A stretch of 64,000 bases of DNA from an uncultured Bacilli bacterium (GTDB taxonomy: Bacteria; Bacillota_I; Bacilli_A; RF39; UBA660): NCBI GenBank assembly GCA_934129945.1, contig CAKOXC010000004.1, forward strand, positions 2,579-66,578. Reading direction: 5' to 3'. Numbering within the stretch: the first letter of the stretch is position 1; each line of letters starts with the position of its first letter. The notes below the pieces were generated by a model. The model saw nothing but the letters and a program-made list of their open reading frames with translations. It did no database searches and was not told the DNA's origin. Of the stretch, positions 4,752-33,258 are shown one piece after another. Made by a program: the position numbers and the translations under genes.

Positions 4752-5504
4752 ATGCGAAAAAATGCAAAGTATATCTTAGTATCTTTGCTGTCATTTTGTT
4801 TTGCAGTAAATGTTAATGCTGCAGAATGTAGTTATGAAAAACAGGTTGAACTTAATAATATTGCATCTACTGTAAAAGCAACTTATGAGGCGGTTGATAT
4901 TGATACAGGAAAAACAGTTAGTTATGTCGATGAAGATGGAATTATTGATACTGATAGACAGGTTCCAGTTAAAGAAAAAGGTTTTAATGTTAAGATATTA
5001 AATCTTACTGAAAATCTATCAATTAAAGTAACTAATGAAACAGAAGGAACAACAAATTATTACTATTATTCAGATTCTGATAACGGTACTATTACTTTAA
5101 GTTCTAAAGTTGCAGATAGAATTTATACATATACAATTACTGTATATGGCACAAAAGATTCATGTGAAGGAATAGAACTACGAAGTTTAAATCTTATAAC
5201 ACCAAAATATAATACATATTCTGATTATTCTTTTTGTAAAGAATATCCAAATTTTGATTATTGTCAAGAATATGTAGTTGATGATAGTTTTAATTTAGAA
5301 GACTTCATTAATAAATCAGCAGCTTATAAAGAAACACAAGATTCTAAAAATAGTAAAGATAATCAAAAAGATAAAGATAATAATAAATCAAATTTTTTTA
5401 AAGAGAATAAAAAATTATTAATTGTATGTGGATCAATCATATTAATAGTGGGGGTTACTACTACTGTGATTATTATCATAAGAAAAAGGAGTAGATTAAT
5501 ATGA
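4752..5504 (+). CDS. Secreted surface protein with C-terminal TM anchor and basic tail; first gene of the pilus/T4SS-like cluster
   Basis: Signal peptide ...VNVNA/AECSY; C-terminal LLIVCGSIILIVGVTTTVIIIIRKRSRLI; the N-terminal ECSY module is shared with the 19346 ORF. Confidence 0.5.
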   Translation: MRKNAKYILVSLLSFCFAVNVNAAECSYEKQVELNNIASTVKATYEAVDIDTGKTVSYVDEDGIIDTDRQVPVKEKGFNVKILNLTENLSIKVTNETEGTTNYYYYSDSDNGTITLSSKVADRIYTYTITVYGTKDSCEGIELRSLNLITPKYNTYSDYSFCKEYPNFDYCQEYVVDDSFNLEDFINKSAAYKETQDSKNSKDNQKDKDNNKSNFFKENKKLLIVCGSIILIVGVTTTVIIIIRKRSRLI

Positions 5505-8332
5505 AAAATATTTTTAAATATATAGGAGTTATGGGTATAGTTGGATTTGTGTCATTATCTAATATAAATGCTTCAACTGTAAGTGTTGAACCAAAGCCTG
5601 GACATGACACAAAGTTTGGATATAAAACTCAAACTCAAACTTTACATACTGAAAATTGTACATATAATATATATTGTCTTGATAAAGGATTACCAAATCA
5701 AAGATCATTTGATGGTTGTAGTATATCAGATGTAACTACTACTGCATTTGGACAAGTAACAGGTGATCATGATTCTAAAGAATACCAGTATAGAGTCATA
5801 GCTAATAACTCTGGTTTAGTAAGAGTTAATTATGCTGATAAAGCTGTGTCAGTATTAAGCCCAGCAGCGCATGGATATGGCAATTTGACTAATAAGACTG
5901 TAAAAAAAAGCGAAATGAAAGAGGCAAATGGAAGCGTATCATATACAACATCTAGTGCTAATGGTTATGGTACTGTAAACGCAACTATAAATCTTGGAAA
6001 AGCTGGTTATGGAGATAAATTTTATATTTCTAGAGGATCAGGAGTTTTAAATGCTATTGATAATGGAAATGGTAGTTATTCTTTAACTATTACTCAAATT
6101 CCAATTGCTGAATGTCAAGGTGCAGAGATTGTTGTAAAAGTAAGAGGAATTTCTTCAAGTTCTTCTAAAGACAGTTCATCAAGTAGTATTTCAATTACAC
6201 CAGGAACAGTTTACTATGTTGACTGTAATGATAAAGATAGACAAAGCTATATACTAGAAATACCTAGTTCTAATCCTAACAGTAGTGGAACTGCTTCAAC
6301 AGTTACATGTGATATAAATGATATTACAAAAAGCTCAACAGGTGGTTTGTCATTCACTTTTACAGTTCCTGATGATGATTGCAACTGTAAAGGTACAACT
6401 ACAATGACAGGAGAATGTGATTCAAACGGTGAAGTTCGAGATTTAGAAGATGAAAACAATTTAAAATCTTGTATTAAACAAGGAGGATTTGCTAGCTATT
6501 GTAATACAAATTTGCAAAAGAAGACTGATGATAATTCTAATAAAAAAGGTAACGTTTTAAGTGAAACAAAGCCTGGGAGTTCTGTAACTTTAACAGATAA
6601 TAATTATTGTAAAGTATATTGTTTAGAAAAGATAGATTTTAATTTACCTGGTACAATAAATACAGATAATGGAAGTTATTTCAAATTGAAAAAAGATTGG
6701 AATAAAGCTAATGATAGTGGAACGAATATGAGTATAAAAGGTACAAGAACTTGTTATACTTCTGAGATTAAAAAGAAGGAATTCATTGAAAAAACTAAGT
6801 CTTTACAAATAAGTATTCGTGATAGTTGGAATGAATATCAAAAAAATAAGAAAAAACAAGAGATAGTTGATAATGCAGGTAAGTATAAAAAAAGTGGTAC
6901 AAAGGATTGTACTTATCCTACTACAGAAGTGCAATATGTTAAAGATGCAAAGGGAAATCTCGTAAAGAATGCTGATGGAACTTATAAAACGACAACTGTA
7001 AATACGACAGGAACAAAACCAAATCCATATACATATTATGAAGCAACTAATGTTAGTTATCCATACGAAAAGGGTACATCAGATGGGGATGGAACATGGA
7101 ATTCTAAATTAGGTACAGATACAGTTAGCTTGACTTGGGGAAATAATCCAACATGTAATGCTGATGGAACTATAACAGAAGATACAGCAAAACCTGAAAT
7201 TACATTAACTACAGAATATGCTAGTCTTTTAAATGATTTAGCTAGTGAAATTCAAAAATATAAATCATGTACTGAATGGAATAATAATTATTGTTTTGAT
7301 CCTGATATAAGTTTTAGTTATGACGAAGTTTATAATAATTTAGTATCTGGTAAAATTGATAAAATAGTTTCAGAAGTTTCAAATCAGACAATTCATTATA
7401 CTAGTGTTAACAATGATTATAAAGATGGAGATAAAACTGACGGTAAAAAAACAGTTCAAAAATATATTTATGTAAATGACACTACTAGTCGTACTCAAAC
7501 TTCTGATATTGATTTAAATACTATTTATATGAAGCAAGAAGTTGTTAAAAAAGCAACTTATAAAGATGCTACAAAGGAAATATATACTTATCATCCATTT
7601 GGAACAATTGTTATTGATAAAAATACAGTAGAGAAAAAAGAAAACTTAAGAAGTTTAGGATATGCTTTCCCAATTGCTTTACAACATGATCCAGATACTG
7701 GAATTTATAATTACTATTTAGCAATTTCTAATATCGGTGTTGGTGGTGATGACGCTGGTGAGTGTAGATATACTAATAAAATAATTGGTGATAGTTGTTC
7801 AATATTTAATACAAAAACTGAAGCAGAGACAGGTAAAGAGTATGTATGCCAATATAAAACAAAGAAATGTCCTGAATGCGAAGTTGAATGTGTTTGCCCA
7901 GATGGTTCTACAAACTGTTATGTTGAAAATAAAGTTTGTAAATTTAAAGAATGTGAAGATTGTAAAGTTGAATGTATAGGTACATGTGTTTGGAATGATG
8001 GAGACACAACAATTTCATATAAAACTATATCTTTAGATGATGTTTATCAAGACGACACACAAATTGGTGGAAACTGGACAGAAGAAGATGTTAAGGCTAT
8101 CCAAGATAAAGGCCAAACAATTTATGAAAATAAACCTGTATTTAAAATTGAATTAACACCTTCACTTATGAATAAAATAAGACAATATAACGAAGATAAT
8201 AAAGAATATAGTAATGATACATTAAGTTGTAGCAATAAGAATTCAAGTGGTGAATATTATTGTACAAGTAGTTTCTTGAAAGATTTTTTAAGTAAGCAAC
8301 ATGCAAATTATACAGATTTTGATAGAAAATAA
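5501..8332 (+). CDS. Large (943 aa) secreted Cys-rich protein, putative pilus-associated adhesin/tip protein
   Basis: Signal peptide; many Cys including CPECEVECVCPDGSTNCYVENKVCKFKECEDCKVEC near the C-terminus; no sortase motif; 4-nt overlap with the upstream gene. Confidence 0.5.
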   Translation: MKNIFKYIGVMGIVGFVSLSNINASTVSVEPKPGHDTKFGYKTQTQTLHTENCTYNIYCLDKGLPNQRSFDGCSISDVTTTAFGQVTGDHDSKEYQYRVIANNSGLVRVNYADKAVSVLSPAAHGYGNLTNKTVKKSEMKEANGSVSYTTSSANGYGTVNATINLGKAGYGDKFYISRGSGVLNAIDNGNGSYSLTITQIPIAECQGAEIVVKVRGISSSSSKDSSSSSISITPGTVYYVDCNDKDRQSYILEIPSSNPNSSGTASTVTCDINDITKSSTGGLSFTFTVPDDDCNCKGTTTMTGECDSNGEVRDLEDENNLKSCIKQGGFASYCNTNLQKKTDDNSNKKGNVLSETKPGSSVTLTDNNYCKVYCLEKIDFNLPGTINTDNGSYFKLKKDWNKANDSGTNMSIKGTRTCYTSEIKKKEFIEKTKSLQISIRDSWNEYQKNKKKQEIVDNAGKYKKSGTKDCTYPTTEVQYVKDAKGNLVKNADGTYKTTTVNTTGTKPNPYTYYEATNVSYPYEKGTSDGDGTWNSKLGTDTVSLTWGNNPTCNADGTITEDTAKPEITLTTEYASLLNDLASEIQKYKSCTEWNNNYCFDPDISFSYDEVYNNLVSGKIDKIVSEVSNQTIHYTSVNNDYKDGDKTDGKKTVQKYIYVNDTTSRTQTSDIDLNTIYMKQEVVKKATYKDATKEIYTYHPFGTIVIDKNTVEKKENLRSLGYAFPIALQHDPDTGIYNYYLAISNIGVGGDDAGECRYTNKIIGDSCSIFNTKTEAETGKEYVCQYKTKKCPECEVECVCPDGSTNCYVENKVCKFKECEDCKVECIGTCVWNDGDTTISYKTISLDDVYQDDTQIGGNWTEEDVKAIQDKGQTIYENKPVFKIELTPSLMNKIRQYNEDNKEYSNDTLSCSNKNSSGEYYCTSSFLKDFLSKQHANYTDFDRK

Positions 8333-8352
8333 CGGAAAGGATTGAATAATAA

Positions 8353-8766
8353 ATGAAAGAAGTTTATTGGGGATATTGGTTAATAGTTTTAGGTGTATTT
8401 ATAACTGTGGTTATGATGATGATAACTAATGTTACAACTTCTAGTACTCAAGATTATTATTTAATCAAAGAAGTTACGGAAGCTTCAATGTTTGATGCTG
8501 TAGATTTAGCTACTTATAGAGAAAATCAAACCTTAAAAATTAATCAAGAAAAATTTGTTGAAAGTTTTATTAGAAGATTTTCTGAAAATGTAAGTTTATC
8601 AACAACATATAATATTGAATTCTACGCAATTCAAGAGCAGCCACCAAAAGTTAGTGTTAAAGTATCGAGTAAATCAAGTGTATTTACAATATCTGGAGAT
8701 AGTAAAAGTTTTGATTTAGTTGATAAAGTTGATGGTATTCTTGAATTACCTAATAATAATAAATAA
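8353..8766 (+). CDS. Bitopic membrane protein (N-terminal TM, extracytoplasmic domain), unknown; minor pilin or assembly factor candidate
   Basis: GGA RBS; YWGYWLIVLGVFITVVMMMI TM helix then soluble domain. Confidence 0.4.
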   Translation: MKEVYWGYWLIVLGVFITVVMMMITNVTTSSTQDYYLIKEVTEASMFDAVDLATYRENQTLKINQEKFVESFIRRFSENVSLSTTYNIEFYAIQEQPPKVSVKVSSKSSVFTISGDSKSFDLVDKVDGILELPNNNK

Positions 8767-8789
8767 AAAGGAATAAAAAGGAGGAAATA

Positions 8790-9647
8790 ATGGCAAATTT
8801 ATTAACAACAATTAAAAGATTTTTAGGTAATAAGAATACAGTAACAATTTTAGGAGTTATAGCCGGTGTATTAGTTATATACATTGGCTATAATTGGCGT
8901 GTAAAGCAAGCTATTAAACCTGTTACTGTACCTTATGCTAAAGTAGAAATATCTTCAAGAACTCAAATTACAGAAGATATGATTGGTTATATGGAGGTAT
9001 CAAGTAGTTTAGTTAACAATAGTCCTAACTTAATACAAAATGCTAGTCAAATAATCAATAATTATGCTGCTTATGGAGTAACTATCCCTGCAAATAGTTT
9101 ATTCTATACATCAGCTATAATGACTGAATCAGAAATGCCTGATTCTGCATTTGCAAATATTCCGGATGGATATACAATTTATTCATTATCTGTAGATTTA
9201 CATGATACATATGGAAACTCAATATACCCTGGTAATTATATTGATTTATATTTAAAAGCTACTGATGATAGTGGAAAAATTATATTTGGTAAATTAATTG
9301 AAAGTATTGAAGTATTAGCTGTAAAAGATAGTCAAGGAAATCATGTTTTTGAAACTACTGTAGAATCAAGAACACCTGCAGAATTATTATTTGCAGTACC
9401 TGATGATATGTACTTATTATTAATGAAAGCTGGATATGTTTCTGGTGGAGTGGATATACTTCCAGTACCAAGAAATGCATCATATTCTGCTAATCCTGGT
9501 GAAACTTCAGTTGCATCAGATTATATTAAGAACTTTATCTTATCTAAAACAGCAACAATCCCTGATAATGTTGTAACTAATACTACAAATAACAGTAATA
9601 CAAATAATGATAATACTACAAACAACAATAATAATAATAACGATTAA
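8790..9647 (+). CDS. cpaB: Flp pilus assembly protein CpaB (SAF + RcpC domains) with Asn-rich low-complexity C-terminal tail
   Basis: N-terminal TM; VTVPYAKVEISSRTQITEDMI (SAF-like); YSLSVDL...YPGNYIDLYL...IEVLAVKD...TPAELLFAVPDDMYLLLMKAGYVSGGVDILPVPR matches the CpaB core. Confidence 0.75.
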   Translation: MANLLTTIKRFLGNKNTVTILGVIAGVLVIYIGYNWRVKQAIKPVTVPYAKVEISSRTQITEDMIGYMEVSSSLVNNSPNLIQNASQIINNYAAYGVTIPANSLFYTSAIMTESEMPDSAFANIPDGYTIYSLSVDLHDTYGNSIYPGNYIDLYLKATDDSGKIIFGKLIESIEVLAVKDSQGNHVFETTVESRTPAELLFAVPDDMYLLLMKAGYVSGGVDILPVPRNASYSANPGETSVASDYIKNFILSKTATIPDNVVTNTTNNSNTNNDNTTNNNNNNND

Positions 9648-9680
9648 TATGATTTAAAGAATAAAAAAGGAGGTGATTTT

Positions 9681-10973
9681 ATGAATGATGCTATATTCTC
9701 TCAGTTAGATTTTGGACCATTAAATGAATTTTTAATGGATGATAATGTTACCGATATTTCTTATAGTAACAATGGTCAAGTATTTTTAAAAACCTTAACT
9801 AAAGGTGTTTATAAAGTTGAAAGACCAGAGATAAATAATGCATTAATGGAAAAATTAGCATTTCAATGTTCTAATGTTATGGGTAAAACATTTAATATGG
9901 CTCATCCTTTTCTAGATGCAGAAAGTACAGAGTTACGTTTAAATTTCGTTCATGAATCAATTGCAACTAATGGAATAGCAGTATTAATTCGTAAAACACC
10001 TGCTAAAATTCGTTTAAATAGAGATAAATTATTAAGAGAAGATTATGTAACAGAGGATTTACTTAACTTCTTAATTGATTGTGTTCATGCTCGTTGTAAT
10101 ATTATAGTAAGTGGTGAAACTGGTTCAGGTAAAACAGAACTAGTCAAATATCTTGCAAGTAATACAAGAGAAGATGAAAAAATTATTTCAATAGAAGATA
10201 CTTTAGAGTTACACTTAGATAGAATTTATCCACATCGTGATATTGTTGCAATGAAAACTAATAATATTGCATCTTATACTGATGTACTTGTTACATGTAT
10301 GAGACAAAACCCAATATGGATATTACTTGCCGAGGTTCGTAGTGCTGAAGCAGTACTTGCAATCCGTAACTCAATATCTTCTGGACACCATATCATGTCA
10401 ACAATTCATGCTGACAAAGCTGCAAGTATTCCAATGCGTATGTATTCATTACTTGAATCAAGTCAAGATACAGATCAATTCTTATCTTCAATTCATAGAT
10501 ATGTTCAATTAGGAATATATGTTAAAGGTTACATGAGTAAAAAATATAATAGATTTCAACGTGAAATACTTGAAGTTTGTGAATTTTATGTTGATGATGA
10601 TAATAAACCATGTACAAATGAAATTTATAAAAAAAGTTTGGATGGAACAATGAGTTTCAATAATCCAACACAACATTTAAAAGATTATTGTAGTATTCAA
10701 GGAATTGATTTAGGTGATGATCCATTCCACTTGGTAACAGAAAAAAAATCAACAAATAATTTAAAAAATCCATTAGAAGAACAAACACCAACCACTTCTA
10801 ATGAAATAAAAAATGTTGATAAAGCTCCTGTTAATCAACAGGTGGAAGTAAAACCTATTAATTCTACTGTGGAAAACCCTACTGTTATCAACAGTGTTCC
10901 TACAAATCAAAATAATAATCAAATAAACAATATATCTAATATAAGTAATATAGATGTATTAGATATTATATAG
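9681..10973 (+). CDS. VirB11/CpaF(TadA)-family secretion ATPase with long low-complexity C-terminal tail
   Basis: Walker A VSGETGSGKTE; Asp box IISIEDTLELHL; Walker B/His box WILLAEVR...HHIMSTIHAD; about 100 aa N/Q/T-rich tail. Confidence 0.85.
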   Translation: MNDAIFSQLDFGPLNEFLMDDNVTDISYSNNGQVFLKTLTKGVYKVERPEINNALMEKLAFQCSNVMGKTFNMAHPFLDAESTELRLNFVHESIATNGIAVLIRKTPAKIRLNRDKLLREDYVTEDLLNFLIDCVHARCNIIVSGETGSGKTELVKYLASNTREDEKIISIEDTLELHLDRIYPHRDIVAMKTNNIASYTDVLVTCMRQNPIWILLAEVRSAEAVLAIRNSISSGHHIMSTIHADKAASIPMRMYSLLESSQDTDQFLSSIHRYVQLGIYVKGYMSKKYNRFQREILEVCEFYVDDDNKPCTNEIYKKSLDGTMSFNNPTQHLKDYCSIQGIDLGDDPFHLVTEKKSTNNLKNPLEEQTPTTSNEIKNVDKAPVNQQVEVKPINSTVENPTVINSVPTNQNNNQINNISNISNIDVLDII

Positions 10974-10995
10974 AATAAGGAAGAGAGGTATAGTA

Positions 10996-11889
10996 ATGGT
11001 ACTTATATTATTATTAGCAATTGCCATATATGTAGTTTCTTATAGATTAAATAAAGGTGAAAATGTTTATAAATTCTTTATTACCTCTGTACAAAATGCA
11101 TATGAAAAATACGCTCCATATTCTTTTAAAGAAGTTAGACAAAAAACTAAAGAATTAGGAAGAGAATATACAGCAAAACAATATGCAATACAAATAAGTA
11201 TAATTGGTGGGTTTGCTGGAGTTATATCATATTTGTATTTTTACAACGTTTTAATAACTATAATTTATGTAATAATAGCTATAGCTTTTATTCCTTATTT
11301 AGCATATTTAAGATGTCAAAAAGTATATAGTGAATATATATTTGAACAAATTCAAATATATACTACTAACGTTATTATGGAATTTAATACTACTCAATCA
11401 TTTGTTAAATCTTTAGAAGGTGTTAGAGATTCTGGTATCCTACTGGATCCAGTTTTACAAGATGTTAAAACTATGATTGATATGTCTTATCAAAATGGTA
11501 CAATTGATGAATCTATTGAATATTTTAATGCTAAATATCCATTCTATATGGTAAAAAATATGAATCAATTGTTTTTACAAATTACTAAAGAAGGTGCTAA
11601 AGATTCTGGTGAAGCATTAGAAAATATGGCAATGGATATAGATGCTTTAGTAGAAGGTGTTTATAGAGACCAAATGGATAGAGTAGAATTCCATAGAAAA
11701 TTCTTAACATTTGGTGTTGCATTATTCTTTCTAGTACTTGCAATGCAATTTTTATTAGGAACAGATTCATATATTGAACTATTAGATATGTTTTATGTTC
11801 AAATAATATTACATTTGATAATAATAATTAATGCTTATTTCTTATTATCTGGTGAAAAATTCTACAATGAAGATGTGGGGGTTGAGTAA
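10996..11889 (+). CDS. GspF/TadB-TadC-like inner-membrane platform protein (paralog 1)
   Basis: Topology of N-terminal TM, cytoplasmic helical domain and C-terminal TM pair; position immediately after the secretion ATPase as in tad loci. Confidence 0.55.
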   Translation: MVLILLLAIAIYVVSYRLNKGENVYKFFITSVQNAYEKYAPYSFKEVRQKTKELGREYTAKQYAIQISIIGGFAGVISYLYFYNVLITIIYVIIAIAFIPYLAYLRCQKVYSEYIFEQIQIYTTNVIMEFNTTQSFVKSLEGVRDSGILLDPVLQDVKTMIDMSYQNGTIDESIEYFNAKYPFYMVKNMNQLFLQITKEGAKDSGEALENMAMDIDALVEGVYRDQMDRVEFHRKFLTFGVALFFLVLAMQFLLGTDSYIELLDMFYVQIILHLIIIINAYFLLSGEKFYNEDVGVE

Positions 11890-11891
11890 TT

Positions 11892-12680
11892 ATGCATATA
11901 GAAATAGTTATTTTAGCAGCAATTATATTATTTGTTTTAAACTATACTGGAAGAATTAACGCTAATAGATTTATTACTGACAATACTGAATATTTTAGAA
12001 AATTAAAAGAAGACGATTGGGATTTTTTAGTAAAAGCTAGATATGGCGATGGAGCAAACCCAGACATATTATTTACTAAGAGAGTTCAAAATGCTGGAAT
12101 AGTATTAGTATTATGCTTATTTATCTTTATTTCTAACTTCAGTTATGCAACATTCTTAGTTTCATTAATTGCAGCCTATTTAATGTTTAAGTCTGGTTAT
12201 AGTAGTATGAAAAAGTATTATAAAAAACATTTGAGTGAAATAGATTCAATGTTACCACATTATTTAAAAAGTTTGGAAATATTAATTCAACACTATACAG
12301 TACCTGTTGCTATTGGTAAATCAATATCTGATGCTCCTGAAATATTTAGAGAAGGACTTCAAGAAATGATTAATGAAATTAATGCTGGTAATGATAAAAT
12401 AGATCCATACATGAATTTTGCTAAAGAATATCCAGTAAGAGATTCAATGAGAATGATGAGACTTTTATATCGTTTAAGTTTAGGTAAACAGGAACATAAA
12501 CAAGAACAATTATTAACATTCTCAAAAACAATATCTAATCTACAACAAAAAGCACGTGAAACACGTTATAAAAATAGATTAGATAAGATGGAAAGCAAAA
12601 CAATGTCAATGTTAATTACTACAGGTTTAGGAGTTATGATACTTTTAATATTTGCAGTATTACAAATGATGAATTTATAA
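11892..12680 (+). CDS. GspF/TadB-TadC-like inner-membrane platform protein (paralog 2)
   Basis: Same topology; T2SSF-like segment ...VPVAIGKSISDAPEIFREGLQEMINEINAGN...; 3-nt gap after the upstream paralog. Confidence 0.55.
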   Translation: MHIEIVILAAIILFVLNYTGRINANRFITDNTEYFRKLKEDDWDFLVKARYGDGANPDILFTKRVQNAGIVLVLCLFIFISNFSYATFLVSLIAAYLMFKSGYSSMKKYYKKHLSEIDSMLPHYLKSLEILIQHYTVPVAIGKSISDAPEIFREGLQEMINEINAGNDKIDPYMNFAKEYPVRDSMRMMRLLYRLSLGKQEHKQEQLLTFSKTISNLQQKARETRYKNRLDKMESKTMSMLITTGLGVMILLIFAVLQMMNL

Positions 12681-25744: not shown

Positions 25745-25748
25745 TAGT

Positions 25749-25782
25749 ACTTTACACTATTAAAAAGTGTAAAGTTTTTTTC
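25749..25782 (+). terminator. Rho-independent terminator after VirB4
   Basis: ACTTTACAC-loop-GTGTAAAGT then T7. Confidence 0.65.
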
Positions 25783-25821
25783 CTTATTGTAAAGTAAAAG
25801 AATGTATGTTAAAATATAGTC

Positions 25822-27369
25822 ATGTTAAAGCGAGGGATAATAATGAACTTAGAACAAGTAGAAAAATTATTTTATGAAATAGAATTAGAAAGAGATAATT
25901 TAGAAATAGAAGAAGAAAAAATAGAAACTCAAAATTCTGATTATCAAGTTTGGGCTAAATTTTATAATGACTTAAATAAAAGTAATGCTAATAAAAAGAT
26001 AGAAATCAATTCAATTAATACAACTTTAGAAAAAATAGAACATAAAGAAAAATTACTTGATGGAAAACTAACTCGTAAAGATACAGAAATAAAAAAAGAA
26101 TTGAGTGAAAAAAAAGCAAAACTAGAAGCTGCGATTGAAGAAAATTTAAATAATATGAAAGATGCTTCAAAAACTTGTAAAGATCTTTTAGATTCAAATA
26201 TAAATTTAGAAGCTAGTAAAAATATAAAAAATATAAATAGAAAAATTAACGATAAAGAAAATGCCATAAAAGATATTTATAATGAATGCTATGAATATAT
26301 TAATAACTTTGATAAAAAAATAGAAAATAAAATTAATGATATTAAAGAAGCTGCTATTAATAATGATAATAATTTAATTGTTTCATATTCTATAGAATTA
26401 ACTTCATTACAAGAAGAAAAAAATAAAGAATATTATAATTATCAAAAAATCATTGAATATATTAAAAACAATGGGTTTGATGCTGAAGTAAAAGAGGTTA
26501 AAGAAGTTATTGATGAAATAGATAATGATTTTAGTAAAGCTAATGGTAATAATTCAAATACTTTAGAAAAAGATAATGAAAAAAATGATGAAGAAGAGAT
26601 TAATTCTAATATAGAACCATTAGAAACTGAGGTAGTAAATACTGATGAACCTATAAAAAATGATGAAGATATAGAAGATATAGCCGAAGAACAAGCAGAT
26701 AATCAAGAAGATGAAGAAGAAATAGATAAAGATACAGAAGTATTAACAGGAGATGTTATTGGAACTCCTGAGTCTATTAAAGACGATGAGAATGAAGACA
26801 AAGATATAATAGAGGAAGATATAGAACATGATCATGATGAAAAGCCAAAAACATCAGATGATGAAAAATCTAAAAATTGCGCTGTACAAATCGAATCTAA
26901 TGATAAAGATGTTCAATTAGAAACTTATAACCATTTGAAAAATAAAGTAAATGAGATTATAAATGATTCTAGTACAAAAGAAAATGATTTAGAATTTGCA
27001 AAAAAACGTGAGATGGCTACTGACTCAGTTTTAAAAGAGTATAGAGAGTTCCATGATAACAAAATAAAAGAAGAGAATCAAGAATTAGAAAAAAATATAA
27101 TTAAAACTACTGAAAATTTAATTGGTGAAGAAATACCTGTAGATGTAAATGACGTTTACCAAGATTATAATAAAATAGATGCCATTAAAGAAATTTTTAA
27201 TGATGGAAAAGAAGTTGCTCAAAAAGCTGCTGTAAAAATAAAAAATGTTATAAAACTTGGCAAGGAAAAATCTTCTGTTATTATGAATAATATAAAAAAT
27301 TCAAAAATAGTTGCTGGTGCAATTGATAAATTATCTAATAATCAAGAATTTGGAAAAGGAAGAATATAA
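25822..27369 (+). CDS. Highly acidic coiled-coil protein (515 aa), unknown function
   Basis: E/K/D/N-rich heptad-like sequence throughout; no TM; true start may be the internal Met (MNLEQVEK...). Confidence 0.45.
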   Translation: MLKRGIIMNLEQVEKLFYEIELERDNLEIEEEKIETQNSDYQVWAKFYNDLNKSNANKKIEINSINTTLEKIEHKEKLLDGKLTRKDTEIKKELSEKKAKLEAAIEENLNNMKDASKTCKDLLDSNINLEASKNIKNINRKINDKENAIKDIYNECYEYINNFDKKIENKINDIKEAAINNDNNLIVSYSIELTSLQEEKNKEYYNYQKIIEYIKNNGFDAEVKEVKEVIDEIDNDFSKANGNNSNTLEKDNEKNDEEEINSNIEPLETEVVNTDEPIKNDEDIEDIAEEQADNQEDEEEIDKDTEVLTGDVIGTPESIKDDENEDKDIIEEDIEHDHDEKPKTSDDEKSKNCAVQIESNDKDVQLETYNHLKNKVNEIINDSSTKENDLEFAKKREMATDSVLKEYREFHDNKIKEENQELEKNIIKTTENLIGEEIPVDVNDVYQDYNKIDAIKEIFNDGKEVAQKAAVKIKNVIKLGKEKSSVIMNNIKNSKIVAGAIDKLSNNQEFGKGRI

Positions 27370-27370
27370 A

Positions 27371-27604
27371 ATGGAAAAAGAATATGATGTGGTTGAATTA
27401 GTAAATGGTGTTAGAGTTGCAGTAGTTGATGCGATAAATTATCATAATAGAATTTTTCTTTTAGTTGGAAAATTAGATAAAGAAGACAATATTTCAGAAG
27501 AATTACAAGTGTTTGAGAAAATTGATGATGAAATTTCAGAAGTAAATGATAATGATTTACTTGAAAAATTAATTCAAACATTTGAAAATAGAATTAATGA
27601 TTAA
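27371..27604 (+). CDS. Small acidic protein, DUF1292-like
   Basis: MEKEYDVVELVNGVRVAVVDAINYHNRIFLLVGKLDKED...ELQVFEKIDDE pattern resembles the DUF1292 family. Confidence 0.35.
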   Translation: MEKEYDVVELVNGVRVAVVDAINYHNRIFLLVGKLDKEDNISEELQVFEKIDDEISEVNDNDLLEKLIQTFENRIND

Positions 27605-27628
27605 AAGCTTGAACCTAAGCTTTTTTTC
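27604..27628 (+). terminator. Rho-independent terminator
   Basis: AAGCTT-gaacct-AAGCTT palindromic hairpin then T7. Confidence 0.6.
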
Positions 27629-27718
27629 TTTTTCATTTTTTTAAAAAGTTATTTTGTAATATTTTTCTTTTAAATTAAAGACTTTTTAATAGAAATTTGT
27701 TACAATAAGTATACAAGA

Positions 27719-30154
27719 TTGGTGGTGATTTTTTTGAATAATTCTAATAATGATAATATTTCAAATAATAATCAACAAACTACTAATTTAAATAATAAAA
27801 ATATAAATATGCCAAATAATAAAGTTAATAGAGAAAATCCATCATCTTCACAAGATGTTACACATACACTAGGAAAAGGAGTAGCAACTCATTTTGGTGG
27901 TGGTATTGGTAATAAAATTTATGATGAAGCAAGTAAGACAAAACTTGGTCAGAAAATAGAAAAAAATGCTTCTAAGCAAATTGATAGAAATCCAATTGCA
28001 TCAAAAGTTGCTAATGGATTAAGTAGTGCAGGCGCAACAGATAAAGCAAATAGTGCGATTGATGCTTTAAGTTTTAAGTCAGGTGGAAAATGTTTTAATA
28101 GTAATTTAAATAAAGGTGCAAAAAGTACTAATAAAAAATTAAATAATAATAATTTTTCTGTTAATAGTCCAATTAGAAATAGATCTAGTTTAAATCAACC
28201 AACTCTTTTAAATGATGGACTTGATCAAGCTCCAGATTTTGAAAATATGACTCCTGAAGAAATTGAAGACTATAGATTAAAACAAGAGGAATTGGAGCAA
28301 ATAAACCAAGAAAAAGAAAAAAAAGAAAAAAATGATAAAAGAAAAAAACAGGTAAAATCAATAATTGAATTTTTTGTAAGACATCCTCAATTATTACTTA
28401 TTGTTGGAATAGCATTATTAATAATTTTTGTCCTTATAATTTTAATTTATATGATTTCTTCAGATATGGATTTAGTTGGTAATAGAGGCGTTGGGTATGA
28501 CAACGCAGAACAAGTAAGTGGATATTGTGAAAATATTATTTTAATAAAAGAACATGATGATTTTCCTGGGGCAGCTGTTGCTTCAATAGATGATGTTAAT
28601 TTAGAAGAAACATTTAGATTAAATAATAGAGATGTTAAAAGATATGAATATCAAACTTATTCATTGGAAGAATATGTAAAAGGAGTATTACAAGCAGAAA
28701 CATCAATTATAAAAGAAGAAAAAACATATGAAGTTGCTGCTATTGTAGCAAGAACTTATGCTGTTGAAATAGCTAATAAAAACTGTTATGTTTGGGATAA
28801 TAATAATAAAAGAAGTGAATATAAAAATCCACAAAATTTTAATCATGATAATATAGATAGTGATATTTCAGAAGCAGTTTCTAAAACTACAGGATTAATT
28901 GCATATGATAAAGATCAAATAATAGATATGAGTCAAGATAGTTATTATGATTATTTTTGTTATAATAAAATTACCAATAGTAGTTCGGAAGATCAATCTT
29001 ATTATGAAATGATTCAAGAAAATGAAGAAGAAAATTTATTGATTTCTGTTGATTGGACAAAAGATAATAATAATGTTGCTGATGGTGATGCTAAGAAATG
29101 GAATTTTAGTGGTAAATATAATGGTGGTGGATATAATAATAATTGTCAAAAAAATGGTTTAAGTCTTTATGGTGCAAAATACTTGTTGAATAAAGAGTAT
29201 AATCCTTATGATACGATTAGAGTATTAATGTATTATTATACCTATGATTTAGAATTGAAAAAAGTTGGTTCTTTTATTGCTAGTGATGGATGTTTTTGGT
29301 GGCCAACTGACGGTACAATAATAACTTCAAGGTTTGGATTAAGAGATGCTCCAACAGCTGGTGCTTCAACAAACCATGGTGCAATAGATATTGCTGTTAG
29401 CCAAGGAACTAATGTATATGCAACAGCTAATGGAAAAGTAACCGTTGCAGGAGCTGTATCAGGCTATGGATATGCGGTTTATATTGATCATGGAAATGGA
29501 ATTGTTTCAAGGTATGGACATCTTAGAGCAGATGGTATCAAAGTTTCTGTAGGTCAAAATGTTTCAGCCGGGGATATAATTGCTTTATCAGGTAATACAG
29601 GAATTTCCACAGGACCCCATCTTCATTTTGAAATTAGATTAAATGATGTAAAGGTTGATCCACTAAATTATGTAAGTCCAATCGATCAACGTCCAACTTG
29701 TACAAATTCAGGTGGAACAATAGTTGATACAGGAGAAAATTCTTCTTCAATTTGTATGACTTTAAAAAATAATGGATTTACTTCACCACAAATTGGTGGT
29801 ATTATGGCAAATTTATTTGCAGAATCAGGATTTAATCCTGCATCATTTAACCCTGGTGGTGGTGGACAAGGAGCATATGGTATAGCTCAGTGGCGTGGTA
29901 ATAGACAGGCTGCGTTAAAAAGTTTAGCTAATTATGATACTCTTGAAGTTCAATTATCTTTCTTATTAAGTGAATTAAACTCTTCAGAAGCAGCAGCAAA
30001 AAGTTCCTTATTATCATCAGGTGGTGATGCTAATAGTTTAGCTTATGTTTTCTGTTCAAAATATGAAAGACCTGGCGGAACAATTTGTACAGAAAGACAA
30101 AATTCTGGTAATGGTTTATCTTATTCAAATTATGCTACAAATAATTGTAGTTAG
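27719..30154 (+). CDS. Three-domain secreted peptidoglycan hydrolase (SpoIID/LytB-like + M23 peptidase + phage-tail-lysozyme-like domain); probable start is the TTG at 27734
   Basis: N-terminal TM; YEVAAIVARTYAVE (SpoIID-like); HGAIDIA...GYGYAVYIDHGNGIVSRYGHL...GPHLHFEIR (M23/LytM); GIMANLFAESGFNP...GAYGIAQWRGNRQ (phage tail lysozyme-like). Confidence 0.8.
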   Translation: MVVIFLNNSNNDNISNNNQQTTNLNNKNINMPNNKVNRENPSSSQDVTHTLGKGVATHFGGGIGNKIYDEASKTKLGQKIEKNASKQIDRNPIASKVANGLSSAGATDKANSAIDALSFKSGGKCFNSNLNKGAKSTNKKLNNNNFSVNSPIRNRSSLNQPTLLNDGLDQAPDFENMTPEEIEDYRLKQEELEQINQEKEKKEKNDKRKKQVKSIIEFFVRHPQLLLIVGIALLIIFVLIILIYMISSDMDLVGNRGVGYDNAEQVSGYCENIILIKEHDDFPGAAVASIDDVNLEETFRLNNRDVKRYEYQTYSLEEYVKGVLQAETSIIKEEKTYEVAAIVARTYAVEIANKNCYVWDNNNKRSEYKNPQNFNHDNIDSDISEAVSKTTGLIAYDKDQIIDMSQDSYYDYFCYNKITNSSSEDQSYYEMIQENEEENLLISVDWTKDNNNVADGDAKKWNFSGKYNGGGYNNNCQKNGLSLYGAKYLLNKEYNPYDTIRVLMYYYTYDLELKKVGSFIASDGCFWWPTDGTIITSRFGLRDAPTAGASTNHGAIDIAVSQGTNVYATANGKVTVAGAVSGYGYAVYIDHGNGIVSRYGHLRADGIKVSVGQNVSAGDIIALSGNTGISTGPHLHFEIRLNDVKVDPLNYVSPIDQRPTCTNSGGTIVDTGENSSSICMTLKNNGFTSPQIGGIMANLFAESGFNPASFNPGGGGQGAYGIAQWRGNRQAALKSLANYDTLEVQLSFLLSELNSSEAAAKSSLLSSGGDANSLAYVFCSKYERPGGTICTERQNSGNGLSYSNYATNNCS

Positions 30155-30165
30155 AAAGGAATAAA

Positions 30166-31023
30166 ATGACACAAGAAAATAAAATAAAATTAAAAATAAT
30201 ATTAGTTATATTTTTAATATTTTGTGCTTTGTTTATAGTAATATACATTAATAAAGGTAAAACTAATAATAAAGATAGTAACACATTAAAATTATTAGAA
30301 GTAGATAACTATAATATATATTTTTCAGTTCAAAAAAATCTAAATAAATTTATTGAATATTATGTTAAAAATGAAAAAAGTTCAGTGTATAACATGCTAA
30401 ATGAAAAATATAAAAAAGAAAATAATATTGATTTAAATTCAAACATTAAACTACTAAATACATTTTCTGAAAATGCTTATCTTAAAAATTTAAAAGAAAA
30501 GTACTATAAATTAAATGATAACGTAAATTGTTATTATGTTAAAGGTGATTTATATGAAGATTCTTTTGAAGAAGATAAATTTTTAGAAAATAATATTCAT
30601 TTTTTAGTATTAATTGATTATAATAATATAACATTTGAAATTATTCCAGTTGAATCACTTGAAGATTCTATAAAATGGATAAAAAAATTAAATAAAGATT
30701 ATGAAATTACGAAAAATAATTATAATGCTTTAGAAGGGATAAATGTAATTACTAAAGAAAATATCTGTCTAATGTATTTATCAGATTTTGTTACATTAGC
30801 AACAAATAATCCTAAAGAAGCATATAAATTAGTTGAAAATTTTGATACTTATGACAAGTTTTCTAATTTTTTAAAAACATCAGGTCAAACTTTTGTAGTA
30901 AGTTCGTGTGAAGTTTATAAAAGCAACAAGAAAAATATTTATAGTATTGTTGATGGTAATAAAATTCATTATAGATTTACTGAAAATAATATTATGGATT
31001 ACACGGTTACTATGACAAAATAA
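30166..31023 (+). CDS. Bitopic membrane protein, unknown; VirB8/TcpC-like candidate
   Basis: N-terminal TM then about 250 aa soluble domain; placed between the hydrolase and the coupling protein. Confidence 0.35.
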   Translation: MTQENKIKLKIILVIFLIFCALFIVIYINKGKTNNKDSNTLKLLEVDNYNIYFSVQKNLNKFIEYYVKNEKSSVYNMLNEKYKKENNIDLNSNIKLLNTFSENAYLKNLKEKYYKLNDNVNCYYVKGDLYEDSFEEDKFLENNIHFLVLIDYNNITFEIIPVESLEDSIKWIKKLNKDYEITKNNYNALEGINVITKENICLMYLSDFVTLATNNPKEAYKLVENFDTYDKFSNFLKTSGQTFVVSSCEVYKSNKKNIYSIVDGNKIHYRFTENNIMDYTVTMTK

Positions 31024-31080
31024 TTATTTTAAAAACTATAATTTTATAGTATAATAATAAATGAATCGGAGGAGTTACAA

Positions 31081-33258
31081 ATGAAATTTAGAGTTACTAA
31101 AAAAGATTTAACAATATTTATAGCATTTTGTATTTTATTGTTATATTTATGTGCAATTGCTATATTAAATTTTGAATCATTTGCAAACTCAGGATCTTTT
31201 TATGGGTTGTTACCATTTAAAGCATTTACATTACATTATTTGCCATTAACCTTAGGTATGTTCTTTATATCTTTAATTGTAATTTTTTCTAGTGTTTCTT
31301 CTTATATATTTAATAAAGAAAAAGGCAAAGGTATAGGAGTTAAAATAGGCGAAAAAGAAAATAAGGGATATTCAAGATGGGCTAAAGAAAAAGAAATAGC
31401 TGAAGATAAAGGCGTTGAATGTGTTGATCCAGCCGCTGATACAATTCCAGCCGCTGGAGTACCACTTTTTTATAAAAAAGATAAAGTATACGTAGATAAC
31501 AGTCAGTATCATAACTTAATACTTGGAACTACAGGAAGCGGTAAATCAGAATCTATTGTTAAACCAATGGTAAAATTGTTAGCTAAAAATGGTCAAAGTA
31601 TGATTATTGCTGACCCTAAAGGTGAACTTTATTCTGATACATCTGAAGAATTAAAAAAACGTGGGTACAACATTATTGTTTTAAATTTTAGGGATCCTCA
31701 AAAAGGAAATTCTTGGAATCCATTAACATTACCTTATAGATTTTATAAAGCAGGAAATATTGATAAAGCTACTGAACTTTTAGACGATGTTGCCCTAAAT
31801 ATTTTACAAGATCCTAATAATAAAAATGATCCATTTTGGGAGAAAAGTGCAGCAGACTATTTTTCTGGACTTGCTATGGGATTATTTCAAGATGCTAAAG
31901 AAGAAGAAGTTAATTTAAATTCAATTAATTTAATGAGTACTGTAGGTGAAGAAAGATTTGGAGCAAGTCATTATATTAATGAATATTTTAAAATGAAAGG
32001 TGAATCTTCTTCAGCTTATATATTAGCTTCTGGAACTATTAATTCTCCAAGTGATACTAAGGGTGGAATTTTATCAACTTTCCGCCAAAAAATAAGAACA
32101 TTTTCATCACGTGAATTTTTATCAGAAATGCTATCTTACAGTAATTTTGATATGTCAAAAATAGGGCAAGAAAAAACAGCTGTTTATATGATAATTCATG
32201 ATGAAAAAACTACTTATCATAGTTTACTTACTATATTTATTAAACAATGTTATGAAACTTTAGTAGATGTTGCTAATGAAAATGGTGGTAAATTACCTAT
32301 TAGAACAAACTTTATTCTTGATGAATTTGCTAATATGCCACCACTTAAAGATGTTGGATCTATGGTATCTGCTGCTCGTAGTAGAGATATAAGATTAACA
32401 TTTATTATTCAAAACTTTGCTCAACTTGCTGATGTTTATGGAAAAGAAGTTGCAGAAGTTATAAAAGGAAATTGTAATAATTTAATATATTTATTATCTA
32501 CAGAAATGGCAGCCTTAGAAGAAATTTCTAAAATTTGTGGTGAAGTAAAATCTAAAGAAAAGGATAAAACAGCATCAACTCCATTAATTACTGTAACTGA
32601 TTTACAAAAATTCAAAATGGGCGAAGCACTTCTTTTAAGAAGTAGAAAATATCCATTTAGAACAAAATTAAAAGCTGATTTTGAAATAAATTGGGGAATG
32701 GAGAAAAAAGAAGGAGTTTTACCAGAACGTGAAAAACGTGAGGTAGAATTATTTGATTTAAAAAAATTCGTTTCAGAAGAAAAAAGAAAAAGAATGATGG
32801 AAAATAATAATGGTGATATGTCATTAAATCAAATGAATAATCCATTTGGAGGTATGATGGGAGCTAATCCATTTAGTGGATTAAATCAGACTCCAAGTCC
32901 GATGCCAAACCCTTTTAAACAAAATCCAATGGCTGATATTGATATTGATAAAGTAATGGCAGATATTGATAAAAAGTTAAAAGAACTTGAAGAAGAAGAC
33001 GAAAAAGAAAAAAAACAACAAGCAAAAGTTCAAGAAAATAAAGGTGATAATGTTAATCTTGATAAAGAAATAAAAAAAGAAACACCTGTATTTGAAATTC
33101 CTAAGAGTGATGAAAAAGATAATTCTAAAGTTTCAGATATTTCAAATAATGTTCAAAAGACTGATAAGCCAAAAATAAATGTTGATGTTGATAGTGTTAT
33201 TGTTAATGATAATATTATTACTGATGATGAATTTTTTGATGATTTCTTTCAAGATTAA
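31081..33258 (+). CDS. virD4: VirD4/TraG-family type IV coupling protein (T4CP)
   Basis: Two N-terminal TMs; Walker A LILGTTGSGKSE; Walker B NFILDEFANMPP; acidic/Pro-rich C-terminal tail. Confidence 0.85.
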   Translation: MKFRVTKKDLTIFIAFCILLLYLCAIAILNFESFANSGSFYGLLPFKAFTLHYLPLTLGMFFISLIVIFSSVSSYIFNKEKGKGIGVKIGEKENKGYSRWAKEKEIAEDKGVECVDPAADTIPAAGVPLFYKKDKVYVDNSQYHNLILGTTGSGKSESIVKPMVKLLAKNGQSMIIADPKGELYSDTSEELKKRGYNIIVLNFRDPQKGNSWNPLTLPYRFYKAGNIDKATELLDDVALNILQDPNNKNDPFWEKSAADYFSGLAMGLFQDAKEEEVNLNSINLMSTVGEERFGASHYINEYFKMKGESSSAYILASGTINSPSDTKGGILSTFRQKIRTFSSREFLSEMLSYSNFDMSKIGQEKTAVYMIIHDEKTTYHSLLTIFIKQCYETLVDVANENGGKLPIRTNFILDEFANMPPLKDVGSMVSAARSRDIRLTFIIQNFAQLADVYGKEVAEVIKGNCNNLIYLLSTEMAALEEISKICGEVKSKEKDKTASTPLITVTDLQKFKMGEALLLRSRKYPFRTKLKADFEINWGMEKKEGVLPEREKREVELFDLKKFVSEEKRKRMMENNNGDMSLNQMNNPFGGMMGANPFSGLNQTPSPMPNPFKQNPMADIDIDKVMADIDKKLKELEEEDEKEKKQQAKVQENKGDNVNLDKEIKKETPVFEIPKSDEKDNSKVSDISNNVQKTDKPKINVDVDSVIVNDNIITDDEFFDDFFQD

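Follow-up and report, generated by a model that had tools for sequence, protein, structure and literature searches.

A chromosomal gene cluster of uncultured gut Bacilli pairs a divergent Tad-like module with a monoderm type IV secretion system, as in the pLS20 conjugation operon

Results

Overview of the cluster

We analyzed a 64,000-nucleotide stretch of DNA from an uncultured Bacilli bacterium (GenBank assembly GCA_934129945.1, contig CAKOXC010000004.1), referred to here as the window, and focused on a gene cluster at positions 4752 to 33258. The cluster has 27 open reading frames (ORFs), all on the + strand, with intergenic gaps of -59 to 114 bp. They fall into two abutting co-directional blocks, a Tad-like block (4752 to 16945) and then a monoderm type IV secretion system (T4SS; 17006 to 33258). 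The window has a GC content of about 25%, with no compositional break at the cluster. A preliminary description, made from the sequence alone, had placed here a single-strand block combining Tad-like type IV filament genes with VirB4/VirD4 T4SS genes, and this was correct. The first ORF starts at 4752, the VirD4 stop is at 33258, and both gene sets are in the one block. However, the two sets had been called interleaved, and they are adjacent modules that occupy separate loci in some related species.

Cluster proteins were compared with the Pfam and NCBIfam hidden Markov models (HMMs). These searches confirmed the identities that had been proposed for the secretion ATPase, VirB4, the cell wall hydrolase, and VirD4 (T2SSE, 92.8 bits; VirB4, 359 bits; VirD4, 170 bits).

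The Tad-like module

The ATPase gene (9681 to 10973) encodes a CpaF/TadA/VirB11-family secretion ATPase, well above the T2SSE cutoff of 24.9 bits. The NCBIfam VirB11, TadA, and TrbB models scored about equally (110.4, 106.6, and 94 bits), and the VirB11 and TadA scores lie below the curated equivalog cutoffs. Its best solved relative is CpaF, at 70 bits versus 59.6 bits for VirB11. Residues ~345 to 430 form a low-complexity C-terminal tail rich in Asn, Gln, and Pro. This tail is very variable in length, and relatives have 364 to 467 amino acids (aa).

Next are two genes proposed to encode GspF-like platform proteins (10996 to 11889 and 11892 to 12680). The T2SSF models missed both products, but the structural part of the proposal survived for the first and, as a weak collinear paralogy, for the second. 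An AlphaFold2 model of the 10996 product made from a shallow alignment (75 to 97% identity) had a predicted local distance difference test (pLDDT) score of 58 and was discarded. With distant homologues added (18 to 33% identity), the pLDDT rose to 80.7. This predicted structure shows a GspF fold, with a single GspF-fold cytoplasmic domain between membrane helices, as in TadB and TadC. Foldseek ranked EpsF first, with a non-significant E value. Aligned by hhalign, the 11892 product was collinear with the 10996 family over 159 columns (E = 1.8e-3), and from such alignments it is probably a second platform protein and a paralogue of the first. An exhaustive profile search for 10996 relatives returned 288 matches, mostly fragments among those listed. 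The only T2SSF signals in remote homologues had E values of 0.036 and 0.083, the latter from an 11892 homologue. Profiles of the two families found nothing among solved-structure sequences, and hhalign gave no signal between the 10996 family and either Escherichia coli HofC or a Paenibacillus larvae gene annotated "FlaJ."

Upstream of the ATPase gene, 8790 to 9647 encodes a protein with an N-terminal membrane anchor. It had been called CpaB, and it does give CpaB/RcpC-like matches, but these are below threshold (RcpC, 26.8 bits against a cutoff of 28.8; TIGR03177, 28.5 bits and E = 8.6e-7 against a cutoff of 71 bits). Its homologues in relatives are marked as weak RcpC matches, and one distant relative has an RcpC match without that mark. 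Many relatives have two CpaB-like paralogues of ~270 to 280 aa between the DUF5411 and ATPase genes (for example, at 7702 to 8547 in locus L003 and 8043 to 8867 in L006; compare 8790 to 9647 in the window), and the window species has one. The last gene of the module (15941 to 16945) encodes a conserved 334-aa cytoplasmic protein with a degenerate P-loop. A CpaE/TadZ-like identity had been claimed for it. A CbiA match (E = 0.002) agrees, but just 2 of 30 family members gave it, and the protein is at best a possible, weakly matched TadZ/CpaE-like protein. In a distant lineage, a homologue with 42% identity is encoded directly after the second platform protein. A profile search of solved-structure sequences gave nothing for the CpaB-like and TadZ-like families.

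Three other genes open the module. The first (4752 to 5504) encodes a protein of 250 aa that carries a signal peptide and is anchored in the membrane at its C terminus. No Pfam or NCBIfam model matched it, and homologues with 25 to 50% identity are present at most of the 80 species loci described below. The second (5501 to 8332) encodes a secreted 943-aa protein with 33 Cys residues and no Pfam or NCBIfam family match. This protein evolves fast: it has 21 to 34% identity (up to 44% in partial matches) where the ATPase keeps 66 to 93%. It is a candidate adhesin or filament-associated protein. The third (8353 to 8766) encodes a DUF5411 protein (PF17424, 184.8 bits) with a pilin-like N terminus, MKEVYWG followed by a hydrophobic helix, that is conserved across relatives. 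One further gene of this block, at 12752 to 14239 between the second platform gene and the pilin-like genes, is variable, lies outside the conserved set, and is confined to a few close relatives. Its 495-aa polytopic membrane product has no Pfam or NCBIfam family match. With roughly a dozen hydrophobic segments and a C-terminal part that is soluble, it is reminiscent in shape of a pilin-modifying glycosyltransferase.

Pilin-like proteins and a neighboring thioredoxin

DUF5411 is one of five small proteins with a short charged leader that ends in Gly and is followed by a hydrophobic helix. Two others are short and Cys-rich (14329 to 14840; 75 and 78 aa; genes 14329 and 14604; 5.3 to 7.7% Cys), and two are larger (14857 to 15917; 171 and 176 aa). 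The leaders read MKEATG/ELNMT in the short pair, M(R/K)EAIGG/TW in the larger pair, and MKEVYWG/YW in DUF5411. This leader motif is near-invariant in dozens of species and resembles a class III signal peptide. No Peptidase_A24 protein was found among the cluster proteins or the annotated neighbors in the window and at related loci. Low-stringency Pfam searches with the unassigned proteins gave only noise (Pilin_N, E = 0.14, for the short pilins; Tad, E = 0.26). A promoter-like site matching 11 of 12 consensus positions lies upstream of the short pilin genes (14256 to 14284, +).

A gene divergent from the cluster (4161 to 4613, - strand) encodes a membrane-anchored thioredoxin-like protein with a CSHC motif. 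Its homologues have Thioredoxin/PedC-like Pfam matches, and its position is kept in close relatives and in the distant locus L180. In very distant lineages, the thioredoxin neighbors are at 8717 to 9118 (L180) and 2693 to 3175 (L182). The 4161 thioredoxin is probably an accessory for the Cys-rich secreted parts. The combination of Cys-rich secreted proteins and a retained thioredoxin points to extracellular disulfide formation in the surface filament of an anaerobe.

The T4SS module

The T4SS module begins after a 60-bp gap, in which there is a promoter-like site with 11 of 12 consensus positions (TTGACA-17-TAAAAT; 16949 to 16977, +). Two VirB2-like (T4SS_pilin) genes follow (17006 to 18085), for proteins of 127 and 209 aa (PF18895, E = 4.2e-5 and 2.4e-5). 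These genes, 17006 and 17456, also gave weak matches to the pilin-like Mbov_0395 model, and their counterparts are directly after the core genes in many species. A gene at 18103 to 19269 encodes a membrane-anchored extracellular protein of 388 aa, which has 36 to 73% identity in closer relatives and no significant Pfam or NCBIfam family match. The next two (19346 to 20842) encode a 381-aa protein and a fourth VirB2-like protein (20501; 113 aa; PF18895, E = 4.1e-4). By eye and from partial tblastn matches, the C terminus of the 381-aa protein resembles a VirB2-like module. The VirB6-like polytopic membrane protein (20870 to 23080) has a long hydrophilic C-terminal tail and is encoded directly upstream of VirB3/VirB4, like gene 49 (g49) of plasmid pLS20. 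It matched the ICE_Mbov_0396_TM model (E = 1.1e-7) below its cutoff. The VirB2-like and VirB6-like labels of the preliminary description are therefore backed by matches (PF18895, E = 2e-5 to 4e-4; Mbov_0396, E = 1e-7), but all of these are below threshold.

VirB3 and VirB4 are encoded in three parts (23099 to 25744; 103, 188, and 594 aa). The products of 23099, 23394, and 23960 align to positions 2 to 96, 92 to 276, and 294 to 891 of the fused Mbov_0397 VirB4 model. The VirB4 ATPase (23960) scored 359 bits with the VirB4_plasma/Mbov_0397 model and 188 bits with the CD1110 model, both below the equivalog cutoffs, and its Pfam matches are AAA_10, P-loop_TraG, and DUF87. Its identity across species is 72 to 89%. 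The VirB4 N-domain protein (188 aa) has a TraC-like Pfam match, and the VirB3-like assignment (103 aa) comes from a match with an E value of 0.022 plus position.

Five base pairs past the VirB4 stop, pattern matching found a terminator-like hairpin with a 10-bp stem and a T-run (25749 to 25775, +). Promoter and terminator scans gave sites that were not enriched over shuffled sequences, and therefore we report only individual intergenic sites.

Downstream of the hairpin, 25822 to 27369 encodes a poorly conserved, acidic coiled-coil protein of 515 aa with no Pfam or NCBIfam family match. A 97-aa ORF at 27311 overlaps the end of this gene by 59 bp (region 25822 to 27604). Relatives have a non-overlapping 77-aa gene, so the true start of the 27311 ORF is probably further downstream. 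The cell wall hydrolase, in the VirB1 role, is membrane anchored and combines SpoIID, M23, and Phage_lysozyme2 domains (27719 to 30154; 104, 94, and 35 bits). Between it and VirD4, 30166 to 31023 encodes a membrane-anchored 285-aa protein with no significant Pfam or NCBIfam match. A gene for 250 to 274 aa occupies this position at loci that have the T4SS only. A VirB8-like role is possible for the 285-aa protein. The last gene (31081 to 33258) encodes the VirD4-type coupling protein (T4SS-DNA_transf, 169.8 bits against a cutoff of 20.1; TrwB_AAD_bind, 83.7 bits; TraG-D_C, 82.2 bits), with 56 to 67% identity across species.

Relatives and linkage of the two modules

Database searches with the 10996 protein gave more than 8,000 close relatives, and every one came from a gut metagenome or an uncultured-genome assembly. 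In a one-genome-per-species collection, 140 stretches encode a 10996 relative. The source genomes in this collection are labeled as uncultured Bacilli, Tenericutes, Erysipelotrichaceae, or "Candidatus Coprovivens," and some as Mycoplasma. Among the hosts named are rabbit, chicken, goat, and roe deer, and further loci are from the human (Hadza) gut. We kept the best 80 loci and derived gene presence and identity from a tblastn matrix. The core (4752, 5501, DUF5411, the CpaB-like gene, the ATPase, and both platform proteins) is present throughout these 80 species loci, with gaps mainly at truncated loci and in the two fast-evolving first genes. Identities are 66 to 93% for the full-length ATPase, 60 to 98% for platform protein 1, and 63 to 95% for platform protein 2. 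The core is usually beside the same Metallophos, Rce1, and thioredoxin genes. The preliminary description had suggested looking for the same gene order in related genomes, and the arrangement does recur in dozens of species, which makes it more than chance.

For a census of linkage, we used the 63 loci with at least 3 kb of downstream sequence. The core, the pilin genes, and the T4SS are contiguous in 30 of these 63 species. The core and pilin genes are followed by a VirB2-like gene in 14, and in 7 the core is followed by a VirB2-like gene with no pilin array. The remainder have the core with the pilin genes (3 species) or the core only (9 species). In other words, VirB2-like or T4SS genes come directly after the core or pilin array in 51 of the 63 informative species.

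PDDEXK_2 genes are found at the junctions where the cluster is split, at sites that vary by species: after platform 2, the TadZ-like gene, VirB4, or VirD4, or between VirB6 and VirB3 (L037, L039, L071, L089, L096, L104, L011, and L017). Their presence exactly at the split junctions suggests that the split arrangements are secondary, and these genes may drive the rearrangements that separate the modules.

Distant clusters (platform 1 identity, ~25%), from other uncultured bacteria, are chromosomal and include DUF5411, the CpaB-like gene, the ATPase, both platform genes, a 15941-like gene, and the thioredoxin gene, with no T4SS in view on the short contigs. These clusters indicate a distinct and widespread family of Tad-like modules, for which linkage to a T4SS is recurrent but not obligatory.

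The pLS20 family has the same pairing

We searched 72,556 plasmids with the ATPase. The top matches (~32% identity, E = 6e-32) were on a Peribacillus plasmid, a P. larvae plasmid, and pLS20-family plasmids, where they are the ATPases of pLS20-type T4SS operons. The Peribacillus and P. larvae operons share the pLS20 layout.

The content and order of the cluster mirror the pLS20 conjugation operon (genes 36 to 52). In pLS20, as in the window, a DUF5411-like gene (g36; PF17424, E = 1.4e-5) is upstream of the gene for the CpaF/VirB11-like ATPase (g37; ~32% identity to 9681). Then come two membrane proteins of ~250 to 290 aa (g38 and g39), which are collinear with 10996 and 11892 (hhalign, E = 3.5e-3 and 5e-4). 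Small pilin-like proteins are encoded co-directionally in both. The g40 product corresponds to 14857 and 15387 (hhalign, E = 1.2e-3; Peribacillus homologue, E = 2.8e-4), with a shared IERNGG-type motif, and g41, a 47-aa Flp-like peptide, resembles the short pilins by eye. Among the T4SS genes, g45 corresponds to the VirB2-like genes (T4SS_pilin, 32 bits, above the cutoff), g48 (annotated VirD4-like) to 31081 (tblastn, E = 2e-48), and g49 (annotated as the pLS20_p028 family) to the VirB6-like 20870. VirB3, the VirB4 N-domain, and VirB4 correspond to g50 to g52, with the same three-way split (103, 192, and 633 aa in pLS20); VirB4 matched its pLS20-type counterpart by tblastn with an E value of 8e-36. 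Both systems also have a cell wall hydrolase. These similarities, though weak singly, are collinear and in the same order. The models for pLS20_p028 VirB6, DUF5592 VirB3, and the MobP2 relaxase did not match any window protein.

Because a Bacillus conjugative plasmid has the same pairing, the combination is real, but it varies a system already known and is not an entirely new machine. The preliminary description knew of no such composition in Firmicutes, whereas an equivalent gene order is present in the named, experimentally studied pLS20 family, and thus the composition exists in a studied conjugation system. It had also stated that Gram-positive mating-pair formation systems normally lack a VirB11-class ATPase, but such ATPases were already reported in the Gram-positive plasmids pLS20 and pAW63 (PMC8557374, PMC9673590). 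In the pLS20 work, g38 to g47 are listed as unknown, and just the unusual VirB11 is remarked on (PMC8557374). According to two pLS20 papers, pili seem to be missing from Gram-positive T4SSs (PMC8092201, PMC11730352). The pLS20 literature that we searched does not recognize the filament-type nature of the g36- to g41-like submodule, and a chromosomal, relaxase-less, lineage-wide version appears to be undescribed in the literature covered here.

Peptides of 47 to 60 aa (MLDQN.DR..W.IGAV...) adjoin the ATPase and platform genes of pLS20-type plasmids in one to three copies (13191 to 13334 in L001, which is pLS20; 13875 to 14292 and 18077 to 18223 in L172). Each is nearly one hydrophobic helix, and they look like Flp-type pilins. 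The pLS20 g41 product is annotated as hypothetical and listed as unknown (PMC8557374).

Chromosomal setting

Species whose flanks are 34 to 79% identical have the same Metallophos/Rce1/thioredoxin flank. Cluster identity falls with flank identity, yet it stays much higher. In L014, the flank is 75 to 79% identical and the ATPase and platform pair are 85 to 96% identical; in L016, these values are 40 to 50% and 78 to 80%, with VirB4 at 89%. The cluster is chromosomal, vertically inherited, and probably under strong purifying selection.

No relaxase was found among the cluster proteins, in the rest of the 64-kb window, or at the T4SS-only locus of a relative, and there is no integrase, tRNA, or Rfam RNA in the window. 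A megablast search with 23 kb found no match in plasmid and phage collections, so the cluster is not a known sequenced plasmid or phage. We rejected an ordinary integrated conjugative element, given the lack of a relaxase, integrase, tRNA, or composition change in the window and the conservation of the flanks across species. The cluster is not a mobile conjugative element here: it is chromosomal and lineage conserved, with no relaxase or integrase found in the window.

Immediately downstream of VirD4, at the boundary of the cluster, is a gene of the PDDEXK_2 (Rpn-like nuclease/transposase) family (33441 to 34253, +; Pfam, E = 1.7e-8). A 110-aa ORF at 34256 (region 33441 to 34588) resembles the C-terminal part of such a gene. 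Further downstream are housekeeping neighbors: spoVA genes, scpAB, fur, and tsaE/B/D. Two loci, L173 and L174, encode a VirD4 protein identical to that of the window. In one assembly it is followed by spoVA/scpAB/fur, as in the window, and in another by rpsP/RNase J/ftsA-ftsZ. Either strains differ by a rearrangement at the PDDEXK_2 gene, or the sequence was misassembled there.

Two other regions of the window are distinct from the cluster. An accessory islet among housekeeping genes (44928 to 50205) has a ToxN-family toxin (108 aa, TTG start), Fic/RhuM and Bro-N genes, and, on the - strand, a gene for a 686-aa protein without a family match (45264 to 47324). No ToxI-like tandem repeats were found upstream of the ToxN gene. 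From 50363 to 64000 there is a long co-directional cluster of the cell wall polysaccharide/teichoic acid type, with GlmS, an ABC exporter pair, several GT2/GT8/GT4 glycosyltransferases, a pyruvyl transferase, a GHMP kinase, an epimerase, and a nucleotidyl transferase.

Discussion

The observation of a Tad-like and T4SS gene combination is largely real, and "hybrid" is a defensible label for it as a modular pairing. However, the cluster is not categorically new. It is a chromosomal version of a known family, and it exposes an unrecognized filament-type submodule. On balance, we lean toward the view that it encodes a domesticated chromosomal pLS20-type apparatus, in which a filament mediates contact and the T4SS carries out transfer.

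Under this proposal, the first module would be a very divergent Tad-type type IV filament machine, made of the CpaF/VirB11-family ATPase, the two platform proteins, the CpaB-like protein, possibly the TadZ-like protein, the five leader-bearing small proteins, and the two secreted Cys-rich proteins. The second would be a monoderm T4SS with four VirB2-like paralogues, a VirB6-like protein, the three-part VirB3/VirB4, a peptidoglycan hydrolase, and VirD4. The ATPase and platform pair might first extrude a short, disulfide-stabilized filament that makes or stabilizes cell-cell contact, much as the R64 thin pilus, the PAPI-1 pilus, and Sulfolobus Ups pili serve their transfer systems. A channel of VirB4, VirB6, and VirB2-like proteins, fed by VirD4, could then move DNA or protein across this contact. 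The analysis shows the gene identities, the fold of platform protein 1, the synteny with pLS20, and the conservation across the lineage; from these we infer that a filament forms, that the modules work together, and that the substrate is of one of these two kinds.

Several findings weigh against this proposal. No T2SSF model (PF00482 or NCBIfam) matched 10996, 11892, or their distant relatives, and no Flp, TadE, or prepilin peptidase model matched any cluster protein. The leader motif differs from the Flp motif G/XXXXEY, and there was no Flp_Fap match. The TadZ-like and CpaB-like assignments are weak or below threshold, and the pairwise hhalign E values to pLS20 proteins are individually weak. 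The modules are separable, with nine species having the core only. At many VirB4 loci (75 to 82% identity), the T4SS is compact and Tad genes are absent within 10 kb, and in distant lineages the Tad-like module is seen, on short contigs, without a T4SS in view. Finally, the near-consensus promoter-like site and the terminator-like hairpin suggest several transcription units. The preliminary description had named failed T2SSF and CpaB matches, or an identical gene order in a named conjugative system, as grounds for refutation, and these are partly borne out by the T2SSF misses, the sub-threshold CpaB match, and the equivalent gene order of the pLS20 family.

The separable arrangements could instead mean that the two modules are independent neighbors, a Tad-like adhesion pilus for gut colonization and a separate, uncoupled T4SS such as the remnant of an ancient integrated element. 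We think this rather unlikely, even though it would account for the separate loci in some species, the Tad-like module alone in distant lineages, and the promoter-like site exactly at the junction (16949 to 16977). There is also a precedent in the lineage-conserved, stand-alone Tad-like cluster of the gut clade TANB77 (PMC11680825). However, the same pairing, in the same order, is found in remote Bacillales plasmids (pLS20, Peribacillus, and P. larvae), and the best plasmid relatives of the ATPase are T4SS linked. In 51 of the 63 informative species, VirB2-like or T4SS genes directly follow the core or pilin array, and the splits coincide with PDDEXK_2 insertions.

A further explanation dispenses with a separate filament. 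The ATPase and the two GspF-fold proteins would be an intrinsic T4SS motor (VirB11 and partners) for a VirB2-like pilus, and the small pilin-like proteins would be T4SS accessory membrane proteins. The seven species in which a VirB2-like gene directly follows platform 2, with no pilin array (L033, L038), fit this idea, as does the T4SS_pilin/TrbC gene of pLS20-type plasmids, which comes after the ATPase and membrane pair with a few small genes in between. VirB11 models also score as high as TadA models. Even so, we regard it as improbable. The GspF fold is a hallmark of type IV filament platforms and SpoIIIAB and of no described T4SS, and CpaF is the best solved relative of the ATPase. The CpaB-like gene and five proteins with a conserved leader and hydrophobic helix also argue against it, as does the Tad-like module without a T4SS in view in distant lineages.

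Least credible, and very unlikely in our judgment, is an active or recent integrative conjugative element (ICE) with a relaxase and recombinase that went unrecognized or are encoded elsewhere in the genome: the full Gram-positive T4SS set with VirD4, the Mycoplasma ICE proteins as best family matches, the PDDEXK_2 nuclease/transposase-family gene abutting VirD4, and several large proteins without an assigned function (5501, 25822) suit such an element, but the cluster has a fixed chromosomal position with the same flanking genes across species, its divergence tracks that of the flanks, there is no integrase, relaxase, tRNA target, or compositional difference in the window, and no near-identical copies are in plasmid or phage collections.

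To return to the domesticated pLS20-type apparatus, a bolder possibility, which we hold only tentatively, is that a whole family of monoderm T4SSs, among them those of the experimentally tractable pLS20-type plasmids and this chromosomal system, has had the filament-type motor (the CpaF/VirB11-like ATPase, the two GspF-fold platform proteins, DUF5411, and the pilin-like proteins) as an integral part since its ancestor, and that the machine is a true chimera of a type IV filament system and a T4SS. If so, transfer would need a filament that Gram-positive conjugation was thought to lack, and a gut lineage would have domesticated the chimera as an organelle without a relaxase, inherited vertically and used to exchange DNA or protein on contact. 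The chimera would also be a living intermediate for the recruitment of VirB11 to T4SSs. The recognition of a platform pair and pilin-like genes beside the VirB11-like ATPase gene of pLS20 leads to a concrete hypothesis that can be tested by knockouts. It could explain both the mating pairs that pLS20-type plasmids form in liquid and the role of VirB11 in Gram-positive systems.

Both platform proteins, all of the pilin-like proteins, and several T4SS parts are currently missed by Pfam and NCBIfam. The cluster defines a strongly conserved surface apparatus that uncultured, low-GC Bacilli of the gut share across at least 80 species; their hosts are humans, mice, rabbits, poultry, and ruminants. 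It is likely to matter for cell-cell or host contact, with parallels in the Patescibacteria T4SS and the TANB77 pilus.

How does this apparatus compare with known systems? The pLS20 operon is on a plasmid that also has a MobP2 relaxase, Rco/Rap/Phr control, and the Ses and TIE proteins (PMC8557374, PMC8092201). It differs from the window in having VirD4 upstream of VirB6, a single VirB2-like gene, and no CpaB-like or TadZ-like gene. The ATPases are 23 to 32% identical, and apart from the ATPase, VirB4, and VirD4, the shared genes are undetectable by BLAST.

Several window proteins have likely counterparts in the Tad/Flp pili of Caulobacter (Cpa) and Aggregatibacter (Tad): the CpaF-like ATPase, the GspF-fold platform protein 1 and the probable platform protein 2 (compare the single-domain TadB and TadC), the sub-threshold CpaB-like protein, and a set of short pilins with larger, pseudopilin-like partners. 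The window is unlike them in its lack of T2SSF, Flp, TadE, and Peptidase_A24 matches and of a prepilin peptidase in the cluster, and in the leader MKEATG/ELN. It also differs in its Cys-rich pilins, the adjacent membrane thioredoxin, and the added DUF5411 and large Cys-rich secreted proteins. TANB77, another clade of uncultured gut Firmicutes, has an order-wide Tad-like cluster so divergent that it is recognized mainly by structure, and the pilus is immunologically active (PMC11680825). We considered whether the window has the same cluster and rejected this because the architecture differs: TANB77, which belongs to the Clostridia, has a 640-aa TadA, a fused 693-aa TadC-TadB, and two ParA-like genes, with no T4SS genes reported.

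Type IV filaments aid contact for VirB4/VirD4-based transfer in the R64 thin pilus, PAPI-1, and Sulfolobus Ups plus Ced systems (PMC12857230, PMC12102498). Those systems are diderm or archaeal and use canonical PilB/PilC/PilD-type or archaeal parts. Their likeness to the window is at the superfamily level. Their functional coupling is experimental, whereas in the window cluster we infer it. A 2025 review describes type IV pilus/T4SS hybrids for R64 and PAPI-1 alone (PMC12857230), and a 2025 preprint argues that VirB2-like pili are widespread in Gram-positive T4SSs (bioRxiv 10.64898/2025.12.18.695078).

The T4SS of the Mycoplasma ICEs (Mbov_0395/0396/0397) gave the best NCBIfam matches for the VirB2-like, VirB6-like, and VirB3/VirB4 proteins, and the host lineage of the window is likewise related to the Mollicutes. 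However, all scores are below the curated cutoffs (VirB4, 359 versus 590 bits). VirB3 and VirB4 are fused in the Mycoplasma model and split three ways in the window, and the Mycoplasma elements are mobile. We know of no ATPase/platform module described for them, and, to our knowledge, they have no canonical relaxase.

The closest parallel is the T4SS of the Patescibacteria. Like that of the window, it is monoderm-type (similar to the FATA class of mating-pair formation systems), chromosomal, and lineage-wide, with tandem VirB2-like arrays and VirB3, VirB4, and VirB6 (PMC12102498). It usually has no relaxase, so a non-conjugative or co-opted role has been proposed (PMC12102498). Its components were reported to be essential for host-dependent growth in the one system tested. 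In these bacteria, type IV pili also have an important part in the attachment of cells to each other (PMC12102498). The Patescibacteria are a different phylum with no adjacent Tad-like module reported, and the window also keeps VirD4 and the hydrolase. The parallel is one of function, between two relaxase-less chromosomal T4SSs.

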